Positions 48,506 to 51,535 of a DNA stretch of 64,000 nucleotides are shown in pieces. Source of the DNA: a phage; assembly GCA_036930585.1 (NCBI GenBank), contig GCA_036930585.1_3066.1. The stretch is one strand, 5' to 3'. Under the pieces are notes generated by a model that ran no database searches, had not been told where the DNA came from, and saw only the letters and a list, made by a program, of their open reading frames with translations. The translations under genes were made by a program, and so were the position numbers. Each line of letters starts with the position of its first letter. Positions within the stretch are counted from its first letter, which is position 1.

Positions 48506-48508
48506 CAA

Positions 48509-48540
48509 TGGGGACCTTTCGGTCCCCATATTTTTATTTA
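48509..48540. terminator. bidirectional terminator between gene 54 and the alt-side genes
   Basis: hairpin ggggacctttcggtcccc followed by atatttttattt. Confidence 0.6.
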
Positions 48541-48824
48541 CGGAATGAAATGAAAGCAGCAACTGAAGCAACTAAACTGTCTTCAATATAAACTTCAATT
48601 TTTACCGGAGCTTCTGACTCAAATTTACCTGTTACTACACCCTGAAAAATACTTTCAGTCTGTTCTGGCTTTGAAAAATTTTCAGAAGGAAAAATTCCAA
48701 ATTTTTTATCTGTTCCGAAAATTTTGATAAATTCATCATAAACTGCTTCATTAAAAGCGTTATCAGCAGGAATAACGCCTTCAACTACAAGTTCTTGACC
48801 TAAAAAGCGTAAAGAAGATTTCAT
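48534..48824 (-). CDS. hypothetical protein (96 aa), alt.-3 position
   Basis: ORF track; RBS GAGGAA; preceded by duplicated promoter element. Confidence 0.55.
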   Translation of the reverse strand: MKSSLRFLGQELVVEGVIPADNAFNEAVYDEFIKIFGTDKKFGIFPSENFSKPEQTESIFQGVVTGKFESEAPVKIEVYIEDSLVASVAAFISFRK

Positions 48825-48832
48825 TTTGTGTT

Positions 48833-48887
48833 CCTCATGTTATGTCAGTAAGACTACTATAACACAACACGAGGGACTTGTAAACTA
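48833..48887 (-). promoter_or_regulatory. early promoter within stem-loop; 53-bp element duplicated at 62881-62933
   Basis: minus strand GTTTAC (plus gtaaac 48881-48886), 17 nt, TATAGT; imperfect inverted repeat spanning the RBS. Confidence 0.5.
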
Positions 48888-49242
48888 CATTTTGAACTTT
48901 TTAGTACGCGTAATAGGCATGCGTCGATTTTATACTGTTTCATTGTTTGAAGAGCAGTATCAAAAACAGCATTAATGACACCAATTGGATTTCCACCCAA
49001 GTTTTTAAGCTTAACTAATGATAGTTTCTCATTAACACCTATCATTACGATATGCATCATTTTGTCGCCTGGTTTAACGTTTTATCTGTATCACCGCCAG
49101 AGGTGTATGTACAAAATCTAAATCCAGGAAGCACGCTTTCTTCGCCGGCTTGAATAGCAAAAATTTGTGGTATTTTATGCTTAGGATTTAAGTTAACAAC
49201 CGGCGCCGAAGCGCCGTCAAATAATTATGTAATAAGTTCCAT
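48857..49242 (-). pseudogene. decayed partial duplicate of the alt 5' region (alt.-1/alt.-2 position)
   Basis: MELIT then stop at 49242-49225 mirrors Alt MMELITELFD; in-frame 67-aa piece MMHIVMIGVNEKLSLVKLKNLGGNPIGVINAVFDTALQTMKQYKIDACLLRVLKS parallels Alt residues about 65-120. Confidence 0.6.
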
Positions 49243-49245
49243 GAT

Positions 49246-51297
49246 TTATCCTTGAACGAACTTGTAAGGCATGTTTGCAATATCTATGCAAGACGCAATA
49301 ATTCCAAGAGATGATTCTACTTTCTGTTTAACATTTGATGAAACAAATGATGCAAAGTCAACTCTGTCTTCTATATCACCTGTCATTGTAACCAATTCAC
49401 CAGTTTCCATTAAATGGTCTCCGTCATAGATTACCGATTCGGTGAGTTCTTCTGTGGTCATAACTTCAGCTTGAATAAGCTTGTTGTTAGTTCTAACTGT
49501 TCCATCGTTGTAAGATGCATCGGTTATTTTATTAACTTTGACCATTAATCCACGTGGCAAAATGACTTCCATTTCATTTGAAGGCGCTAAACTTCCACCG
49601 GGTAAAACAACATTAACCTTATCAGCCCCAGTAATAACCCATCCAATTCCAACTAAATTATCGCTAGAATTTACTAGTCCTTCATCAGTTTTATCAATAG
49701 AAACACTTAGACGCTTTTCGTCCGGTAAAACACCCACAGATGAATCAGTCATCCAAGTACCAAAAATATTTGGATATAATGGTGTTGACACAAAGTTTCT
49801 AAAATAAAAAACTCGATTTTTTACCATTGCTTCGTATATTGAAGGTAACATTCGTTGTGAACGATACAAAGTAATACCTTTTGGTAATCGTTCACCATTT
49901 TTAAAGGCTGAATCTAAATTATCAATGGCTTGTTCTATTTCAGGTGCTGTTAAAATACTTGTACGCTCATCTGGATTATATAATCCCAAAAGAGCATTAT
50001 TCATGTCTACATATCCTGAACCTACATATTCACGAATTCCGCGTTTTTGCGCTGGTGTGTATTTAGATGAATCTTTATTTTCGACTATAGGATGTAATGA
50101 CCATCCAGCGGTAAGAGCATATCCACGTAATTCTCTTCGAATAATCTTTGTTTTTATTGCATTCCAAGAATTTTGTACTAACTCATTCGCAGCATCTTGA
50201 TTTAAATGCGAATGCTTGTTAATGTTTCTTTCTAACCAAGCACCTTTATATTTTTCTAAAGTATCATCAACTATAGAAGCAATAGTTTCTAAAGTTTTTA
50301 TTGAAGTAATAGATTCTTTTCGTAATCTTTCTAAAGCTTTATTTTTTATTTCTGCATTAACATCAGATTCTTTATCTTCAGGAATTATAGAAGCTTCTCT
50401 GAATGCCATTCCAGCTGTAACACTGCTAAGAGCATTCTCTAGTGCAAATCCTGAAGTAGAAATAACAGTTAATTCATTAGCGTCAGAAATTAAAGGAGCG
50501 TCAGCGGGTTTATTTAATTCTGCTGCTGAAGCCTCAAATTTTTGAAACATCGGCGTTTCAAATCTAGAAGATTCCAATGATTGACTTTGCGCAATTGCTC
50601 TACGGGAAATTTTAACTTTAACGATTACGGCTTGGTCAGAACGTTTATCATTTTCTTGTGCAATTGATGCTGCAATTGCCTCATTTTTAGTTACTTGGGC
50701 TCCAGTATCTTTATTGATATAAACATCACCGACTTTCGATTCAACTTTAGTAAAGAGCTCGGTACTAATTTCCGGAACTCCTGGAATGTCTTCTAGTGAT
50801 ACATTTTTGCGATGTATAAGAATATATGCATACTTTTTATCATAATCCCAGAGTTCCTTAAGAAGGACGTATCTGCCACCTGAACGACTACGGATAAGTC
50901 TATCAGCAATAACTTGAATTTGTCGAGCTTGACCGGCGGTTTTAGACTTAAGAATACGAAGCATGCAGGCATCAATTTTATATTGACGCATTGTTTGCAT
51001 TGCAACAGTAAAAACTGAATTGATATAATTAATCGGGCTTGGACCAAGACCTTTTAATTTAGCAATTGAACCTTTAGCAGTTAATGTAAAAGGAACAATA
51101 TGCATCATTTTATCGCCCATCTTTAAATCACGATTAGTATCACCTCCAGATGTATAGGTACATAAACGAAAGCCTGGTTGTTCAATTGCATCATCAACAT
51201 GAACTGAAAAAATTTGTGGTATTTTCTTCTTTGGATTTAAGTTTGTAATCGGAAGAGTAGTATCTTCGTCAAATAATTCTGTAATTAGTTCCATCAT
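49246..51297 (-). CDS. alt: Alt ADP-ribosyltransferase (packaged, injected)
   Basis: 683 aa (T4 682), position between gene 54 and DNA ligase. Confidence 0.85.
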   Translation of the reverse strand: MMELITELFDEDTTLPITNLNPKKKIPQIFSVHVDDAIEQPGFRLCTYTSGGDTNRDLKMGDKMMHIVPFTLTAKGSIAKLKGLGPSPINYINSVFTVAMQTMRQYKIDACMLRILKSKTAGQARQIQVIADRLIRSRSGGRYVLLKELWDYDKKYAYILIHRKNVSLEDIPGVPEISTELFTKVESKVGDVYINKDTGAQVTKNEAIAASIAQENDKRSDQAVIVKVKISRRAIAQSQSLESSRFETPMFQKFEASAAELNKPADAPLISDANELTVISTSGFALENALSSVTAGMAFREASIIPEDKESDVNAEIKNKALERLRKESITSIKTLETIASIVDDTLEKYKGAWLERNINKHSHLNQDAANELVQNSWNAIKTKIIRRELRGYALTAGWSLHPIVENKDSSKYTPAQKRGIREYVGSGYVDMNNALLGLYNPDERTSILTAPEIEQAIDNLDSAFKNGERLPKGITLYRSQRMLPSIYEAMVKNRVFYFRNFVSTPLYPNIFGTWMTDSSVGVLPDEKRLSVSIDKTDEGLVNSSDNLVGIGWVITGADKVNVVLPGGSLAPSNEMEVILPRGLMVKVNKITDASYNDGTVRTNNKLIQAEVMTTEELTESVIYDGDHLMETGELVTMTGDIEDRVDFASFVSSNVKQKVESSLGIIASCIDIANMPYKFVQG

Positions 51298-51317: not shown

Positions 51318-51325
51318 TATTTATA
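51318..51325 (-). promoter_or_regulatory. T4-type late promoter TATAAATA for alt
   Basis: plus tatttata 51318-51325, about 20 nt upstream of alt ATG. Confidence 0.5.
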
Positions 51326-51346
51326 AAATTAAAGGCCCGAAGGCCT

Positions 51347-51535
51347 TTAATAATCTATTGGTAAGAGAGTACGATATATTTCAAACTTTGGTCCTTTTTC
51401 ATAGGCATCAAATGTTTCTGTGAATTTATTATAAGCGTATGCATCTACAAATTCGAGAATGACTTGTGATACAGAAGTAGAAACATCTCCACCTTCTTTT
51501 TGAGCAATGACAATTGTTTCTAAGTAAGCTTTCAT
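51347..51535 (-). CDS. hypothetical protein (62 aa)
   Basis: ORF track; overlaps stop of gene 30. Confidence 0.45.
   Translation of the reverse strand: MKAYLETIVIAQKEGGDVSTSVSQVILEFVDAYAYNKFTETFDAYEKGPKFEIYRTLLPIDY

Follow-up and report, generated by a model that had tools for sequence, protein, structure and literature searches.

The minus-strand segment that follows alt in the window (the whole stretch of phage DNA analysed here, 64,000 nucleotides) is in our estimate, at a probability of about 0.9, a pseudogene, namely the 5' stump of a further gene for an Alt-type ADP-ribosyltransferase, which most Tequatroviruses have in full length immediately behind alt. Alignments with relatives retaining this gene show the relic to derive from the full-length form through the loss, in one event, of 1,699 bp between a pair of 9-bp direct repeats. 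As it stands in the window the feature is the already known alt.-1/alt.-2 relic of T4 with one extra stop codon, an ordinary transcribed pseudogene. The refinement over prior annotation lies in its origin from a full-length paralogue by repeat-mediated deletion and in the complete decay series present in GenBank, which is tidy but not surprising.

Structure of the relic and its deletion junction

The window is a Tequatrovirus (T4-like) genome, and the region under study corresponds to the locus of alt.-1 and alt.-2 in T4. A query of 801 nt around the relic matched 503 phage records at 90-100% identity; the best match, Escherichia phage BYEP01, was 99.6% identical over the query and 100% identical over the relic itself. 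The minus strand carries, in order, DNA ligase, alt.1, a late-promoter motif, alt, the relic, alt.-3 and a terminator, after which gene 54 follows on the other strand (Table 1). The product of the window alt matches the Pfam family PF03496 (ADPrib_exo_Tox) over residues 375-615 with E 2.3e-32. The motif TATAAATA upstream of alt is what we take to be the T4 late-promoter consensus, and in T4 alt is expressed late (PMC9697503). A terminator at the position between alt.-3 and gene 54 is also annotated in phages e11/2, SP1 and JB75.

Table 1. Positions of the relic, its remnants and the neighbouring elements in the window
Feature	Position	Strand	Description	Basis
Late-promoter motif	51318..51325	-	TATAAATA; ~20 nt upstream of the alt start	Pattern search
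alt	49246..51297	-	Intact Alt ADP-ribosyltransferase of 683 aa; functional paralogue, similar to the relic	
alt stop	49248-49246	-	TAA	
Shine-Dalgarno-like site	49253-49249	-	AAGGA; 6 nt upstream of the MELIT start, within the alt 3' end	
Relic	49245..48857	-	Between alt and alt.-3	
Original paralogue start	49225..49242	-	ATG GAA CTT ATT ACA TAA, i.e. MELIT-stop	
Hairpin with cUUCGg tetraloop	49201..49216	-	CGGCGC-UUCG-GCGCCG; relic codons 9-14, ~30 nt past the alt stop	Centroid structure
Frameshift site	49080..49083	-	Run of 4 A; intact paralogues have 5 A	
67-aa ORF	48857..49060	-	Intact; equals T4 Alt.-2, phrog_15247	
Deletion junction	48896..48904	-	Single remaining 9-bp repeat CTAAAAAGT	Overlap of the window/RB14 BLAST pieces
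Last 11 nt of ancestral paralogue	48885..48895	-	Includes its TAG stop (48887-48885), now in the wrong frame	RB14 alt.-2 3' alignment
alt.-3 early-type promoter	48856..48884	-	TTTACA-17 nt-TATAGT with upstream TG	Promoter scan, 10/12 matches
alt.-3	48534..48824	-	Intact, 96 aa, DUF5498, phrog_1739; used here as constraint control	PF17602, E 1.4e-64
Bidirectional terminator hairpin	48508..48529	both	Between alt.-3 and gene 54	

The relic repeats the first ~116 codons of the neighbouring alt. Aligned as nucleotides with the 5' end of that gene (about 50930-51297), it stays colinear for ~360 nt, with one small gap of a codon (3 nt) close to the 5' end and another of 1 nt in an A-run; DNA identity is about two-thirds by inspection, the tool's mean column identity of 78% including gap columns. 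The relic ATG (49242-49240) opens 3 bases past the alt stop and leads through MELIT to a TAA at 49227-49225, in agreement with the MELIT and stop read in a preliminary description of this DNA, made from its letters and a list of open reading frames. The frameshifted stretch that it placed next is likewise present, the ~160 nt after this stop being alignable with alt yet out of frame because one A is missing from the A-run at 49083-49080. The same description held that an intact 67-aa ORF parallels Alt residues of about 65-120, and this is borne out for the first 55 residues of that ORF: BLASTP against the window Alt gave 34/55 identities (62%) over Alt residues 64-118 with E 2e-21, and the Alt family profile phrog_802 was matched over positions 64-120 with E 8e-20. 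Judged by the formal nucleotide and protein alignments that it had proposed, the likeness of the relic to alt is far above chance. A Pfam search with the 67-aa ORF gave no match; the ORF is without the ADP-ribosyltransferase catalytic domain.

In RB14, T6, T2, JB75 and KMB39 an ORF of 2,058 nt and 685 aa occupies the space between alt and alt.-3; in RB14 it is the gene alt.-2 (YP_002854530, L005:6004-8061). Comparison of the window with RB14 yielded two aligned pieces, of 96% and 97% identity, which overlap by exactly 9 nt. The first comprises the 3' end of alt together with codons 1-116 (the first 348 nt) of the paralogue, and the second runs from the final 20 nt of the paralogue through the spacer and alt.-3. 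The overlap corresponds to the repeat CTAAAAAGT, of which four of the five intact genes (RB14, T6, T2 and JB75) have two copies at a distance of 1,699 bp. The deletion took codons 117 to about 681, the whole catalytic domain included, and joined the stump to the last 11 nt of the paralogue, out of frame since 1,699 = 3 x 566 + 1. Residues 1-55 of the 67-aa ORF equal ancestral residues 62-116. Because the junction is out of frame, residues 56-67 are unrelated to Alt: the reading frame runs past the old TAG at 48887-48885 to another TAG located in the -10 box of the alt.-3 promoter, so that these last 12 residues, SKCSLQVPRVVL, are a read-through into the intergenic promoter. The relic thus lacks a continuous frame from its MELITE start at three points: 1) the TAA at codon 6; 2) the 1-nt deletion at 49080-49083; and 3) the out-of-frame junction.

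Because the relic DNA is only about two-thirds identical to alt, it is the paralogue, and not alt, of which it is a remnant. The deletion might have occurred by slipped mispairing or by short-homology recombination. The stump later gained the 1-nt deletion in the A-run and the change from GAA to TAA at codon 6, of which the window has both. The right breakpoint lies just short of the alt.-3 early promoter, 12 nt upstream of it, and the promoter survived; it may be that only deletions sparing this promoter survive.

Allele series and selective constraint

An 80-nt query spanning the junction was covered in 90 phage records and one over the undeleted left breakpoint in at least 315, the latter being a lower bound from megablast and both counts including duplicate records. 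A second Alt-type enzyme is intact in roughly three quarters or more of the sequenced Tequatroviruses, including T2 and T6. Our comparison covered 25 deletion alleles, those of the window and of two IMG/VR contigs among them. In all 25 the junction has the same position, and in 24 an identical sequence, with F25 lacking one A of the junction A-run; the deletion appears to have a single origin. All 25 retain at least part of the stump.

Codon 6 is GAA in 5/5 intact paralogues and in T4, and TAA in 15/25 deletion alleles including that of the window. The A-run has 5 A in 5/5 full-length genes and in 7/25 deletion alleles, the other 18 having 4 A. The two lesions divide the deletion alleles into four classes: A) GAA with 5 A, in which a 128-aa ORF is intact (three alleles: N2, SYGD1 and FL23); B) TAA with 5 A (four alleles: SG1, AV119, fPS-2 and EC128); C) GAA with 4 A, which is the classical arrangement of alt.-1 plus alt.-2 (seven alleles: T4, e11/2, SP1, F25 and others); and D) TAA with 4 A (11 alleles: the window, BYEP01, Lutter and others). 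As all four combinations are found among deletion alleles, the deletion came first, and the nonsense and frameshift lesions arose separately. Their joint presence in the window may reflect recombination or recurrence. The class A ORF, at 601-987 in N2 (L026), SYGD1 (L027) and FL23 (L028), consists of an Alt-like N-terminus and 12 junk residues. When IMG/VR was scanned for a deletion allele without damage (codon 6 as GAA, 5-A run and junction), none came up, and a scan there for the junction alone gave just two contigs, both of the T4 type; the undamaged allele was found by tblastn against phage records.

Among the five intact genes, the 348 nt shared with the stump vary at 27 synonymous and 2 non-synonymous sites, whereas variants private to the deletion alleles comprise 8 synonymous and 15 non-synonymous ones (Fisher p = 1.2e-5 against the intact genes), with the reservation that 'private' is defined against five intact alleles only and some of these variants may be older polymorphisms. 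In the same genomes alt.-3, our control, has 23 synonymous and 3 non-synonymous polymorphic sites. The ratio of diversity at codon positions 1+2 to that at position 3 is 0.26 in the stump, 0.14 in the intact genes and 0.08 in alt.-3, a measure less decisive than the count of private variants. These comparisons point to a relaxation of constraint in the stump that is visible but modest. The residual weighting towards third positions could stem from a recent origin together with recombination with intact alleles, and we read the pattern as one of recent, ongoing decay and not of constraint.

Of the variants private to deletion alleles that fall in the 67-aa ORF, most are non-synonymous (G>S, P>Q, F>L and S>G against 2 synonymous). 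The ORF is still 67 aa long in 21/25 deletion alleles. An insertion of 7 nt leaves only 18 aa of it in HY03, F1 has lost three codons of it through a 9-nt deletion, a 1-nt frameshift at the junction makes it 74 aa long in F25, and in ACG-C40 its stop is lost. With 67 aa kept in 21 of the 25 alleles and the 128-aa ORF complete in three, some residual function in some phages is conceivable.

Expression and possible products of the stump

A terminator scan found no terminator-like site on the minus strand between alt and the relic, and late alt transcripts should therefore run through it, so that the stump would still be transcribed as their tail. Ribosomes at the old start site would yield only MELIT, despite the good AAGGA Shine-Dalgarno sequence. 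Upstream of the 67-aa ORF there is only a weak AGG, the same as in the intact gene, and this ORF is probably an accidental leftover with a weak ribosome-binding site and without a function of its own. For T4, RNAs of both alt.-1 and alt.-2 have been detected and assigned to the 'middle' class (PMC9697503 Tables S2, S3). The T4 Alt.-1 and Alt.-2 proteins were undetected in the time-resolved proteome, the Alt.-1 intensities all being zero (PMC9697503 Table S2), in data which are from T4 and weak for small proteins.

The sole working element inside the relic coordinates would be the alt.-3 promoter at the 3' edge. A promoter is annotated at the identical place in phage Lutter, and it fits the early expression of alt.-3 in T4, in which the 96-aa Alt.-3 was detected early as both RNA and protein (PMC9697503). 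Besides this early-type promoter of its own, the strongly conserved alt.-3 has a strong GAGGA ribosome-binding site, and its product is an abundant early protein in T4. A stretch of 48 nt in a GenBank record of Staphylococcus phage SAJK-IND (MG010123.1, 31849-31896), at the end of that record, is 97.9% identical to the alt.-3 promoter region of the window; it is probably a contamination or mis-assembly of that record.

The hairpin with the cUUCGg tetraloop has an unchanged sequence in the intact RB14 paralogue and therefore did not evolve in the relic. We rejected the idea that it is a newly evolved terminator, as the intact paralogue contains the identical sequence within its coding region and the hairpin is not followed by a T-run. 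For the A-run, programmed frameshifting and transcriptional slippage were considered and likewise rejected, there being only 4 A, with 5 A as the ancestral in-frame state and, in the window, a stop upstream. A second cUUCGg hairpin, AAAGGCC-UUCG-GGCCUUU, is found at about 51340-51357 (minus strand), in the interval from alt.1 to the late promoter of alt, a place for which a terminator is annotated in other records. In intact paralogues the first hairpin is only ~25 nt past the start codon and might damp translation. An Rfam search at a permissive threshold gave two chance-level matches only, both outside the relic, and no known RNA family within it.

One could suppose that the stump is retained as a cis-acting spacer, either as a 3' untranslated region of the alt mRNA with a stabilising hairpin or as a means of spacing the alt.-3 promoter from alt. 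The position of a stable hairpin ~30 nt past the alt stop, that of the alt.-3 promoter at the 3' end of the stump, and the survival of the stump in every allele examined would suit such a role. Yet the hairpin was inherited unchanged from coding sequence, the fold of the whole 81-nt stretch is unexceptional (z = -1.5), no known RNA family is matched, and phage KAW1E185, described below, has no separate stump at all; we consider this reading very unlikely.

Still less likely is that the 67-aa ORF (Alt.-2) is translated as a functional micro-protein that acts alone, for example by binding the prohead core or a host target. The length kept in 21/25 alleles, an Alt-like part that is mostly conserved, a PHROG family of its own (phrog_15247) and the presence of the transcript in T4 speak for it, as does the overlap of the alt.-1 stop with the alt.-2 start in T4 (ATGA), through which translational coupling would be possible. 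In the window, however, the upstream ORF ends after 5 codons, 165 nt earlier, and the ATGA coupling is lost; only the weak AGG that the intact gene also has at this place lies upstream. Further, HY03 has a broken form of the ORF and F1, F25 and ACG-C40 have altered ones, its private variants are mostly non-synonymous, its final 12 residues are frame-shifted promoter sequence, the N-terminal 61 residues are absent, and the T4 protein went undetected.

The preliminary description had also offered a small packaged peptide as an alternative to a broken pseudogene, seeing in the Alt N-terminus the part expected to direct capsid packaging. The gp21 prohead protease cleaves according to the rule (L/I)-x-E, and E6 of MELITE would be the residue after which it removes an N-terminal peptide. 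gpAlt is a prohead core protein of ~40 copies from which gp21 removes a small N-terminal peptide (PMC9958956). In the window a stop replaces this E6, so that the N-terminal peptide is not attached to a protein body, and the 67-aa ORF begins only at ancestral residue 62. A packaged product from the window allele is therefore very unlikely, and the proposal finds no support here, given the 5-codon N-terminal ORF, a 67-aa ORF that is without the N-terminus and altered in four phages, and T4 equivalents undetected as protein. The packaging idea is conceivable only for the 128-aa class A alleles. It is very unlikely that a stump product, whether from the 67-aa ORF or, more plausibly, as the 128-aa fragment of N2, SYGD1 and FL23, enters the prohead core or binds an Alt partner and modulates the packaging or activity of functional Alt; were it so, T4-type phages would carry a truncated 'decoy' rather than debris.

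The intact paralogue, earlier annotation and comparison with known systems

The intact paralogue is 41% identical to Alt over its full length, with ~68% identity in the N-terminal ~240 residues and ~25% in the remainder. It matches PF03496 with E 9e-20, the domain lying at residues 416-620 in RB14 Alt.-2, and in the alignment it keeps LYR, FVST and E-x-E (EAEVILPRG), which we take to be the motifs expected of an arginine-specific (R-S-E) ADP-ribosyltransferase. A search of the searchable literature found no study of its function, probably because the model phage T4 is without an intact copy. The relic itself matters little for the window, and experimental attention would be better spent on this paralogue than on the relic. 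Escherichia phage vB_EcoM_KAW1E185 (L023:3004-5061) has a single alt-type gene, which is chimeric: nt 1-1785 correspond to alt (95.6% identical to RB14 alt) and nt 1754-2058 to the paralogue (94.8%), with the crossover within a shared stretch of 32 nt. This chimera looks like the product of an unequal crossover of the tandem paralogues and, if so, would represent a second independent route to the loss of one copy.

The T4 RefSeq record (NC_000866) lists alt.-1 (T4p199, 61 aa) and alt.-2 (T4p198, 67 aa) at the same position, with the note that 'alt.-1 and alt.-2 together reflect an old duplication of the first part of gene alt, into which a stop codon and new ...'. Nolan et al. 2006 (PMC1524935) place both among the paralogous duplications of adjacent genes in T4; theirs was the only relevant source in a full-text literature search on 'alt.-1' and 'alt.-2', to which a broader search for literature on duplications or pseudogenes added nothing relevant. 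On this account only the first ~350 nt of alt were ever copied, and a stop and a new start were acquired afterwards; within a single genome, only the 5' part is indeed visible as a duplicate. We regard it as highly improbable: other phages have at this very place an intact 685-aa paralogue with whose 5' end the stump shares 96% identity, against about two-thirds with its own neighbour alt, and the 3' end of the stump corresponds to the final 20 nt of that gene and the spacer following it, with the 9-bp repeat at both breakpoints. The preliminary description, which spoke of a decayed tandem duplicate of the alt 5' region, was hence right as to decay and pseudogene status and wrong as to a duplication limited to the 5' part, the repeats and the RB14 alignment identifying the remnant of a complete 685-aa paralogue. 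The converse suggestion that the short form is ancestral and that T2, T6 and RB14 gained 1.7 kb, as the 'apparent insertion in alt.-2' noted in the T6 record would have it, can be dismissed, since that segment encodes a homologue of Alt residues ~119-680 with the ADP-ribosyltransferase domain in its proper order, the junction of the short form does not keep the frame, and an insertion would have had to re-create a colinear Alt homologue exactly. The 'duplication of the first part' of T4 and the 'apparent insertion' of T6 thus describe the history in reverse, and T4 is a natural deletion mutant of a second Alt-type enzyme.

Relic ORFs of 67 or 128 aa are named 'ADP-ribosyltransferase' or 'NAD(+)--arginine ADP-ribosyltransferase' in F25, F26, JEP6, SP21535, pSe_SNUABM_01 and SYGD1, though they are without the catalytic domain. 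For the 67-aa ORF together with the MELIT stub we recommend the label of a pseudogene in place of 'ADP-ribosyltransferase'.

A comparison of the window relic with the known systems showed that: 1) It shares with T4 alt.-1/alt.-2, to which the preliminary description had also pointed, the locus between alt and alt.-3, the same CTAAAAAGT junction, the same A-run frameshift and a 67-aa ORF identical in length and sequence (phrog_15247, E 8.8e-50, full length); unlike T4, it has TAA instead of GAA at codon 6, which reduces the 61-aa Alt.-1 ORF (phrog_23015) to MELIT. 2) With the paralogue of RB14, T2, T6, JB75 and KMB39 it shares an orthologous locus, with 96% identity in the first 348 nt and ~97% in the last 20 nt and spacer; it is, however, without the 1,699 bp that encode the PF03496 domain and the R, S-T and E-x-E motifs of this 685-aa protein. 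3) It is homologous to the N-terminal ~116 residues, including the MELITE N-terminus, of T4 gpAlt, the capsid-packaged mono-ADP-ribosyltransferase, but has neither the catalytic domain nor a continuous frame, and its DNA is only about two-thirds identical. 4) A precedent in annotation is g192c of Yersinia phage fPS-2, labelled 'similar to N-terminal of RNA polymerase-ADP-ribosyltransferase Alt; putative pseudogene', which represents the same deletion allele with TAA at codon 6; in contrast to g192c, which has the 5-A run and no frameshift, the window relic is frameshifted as well.
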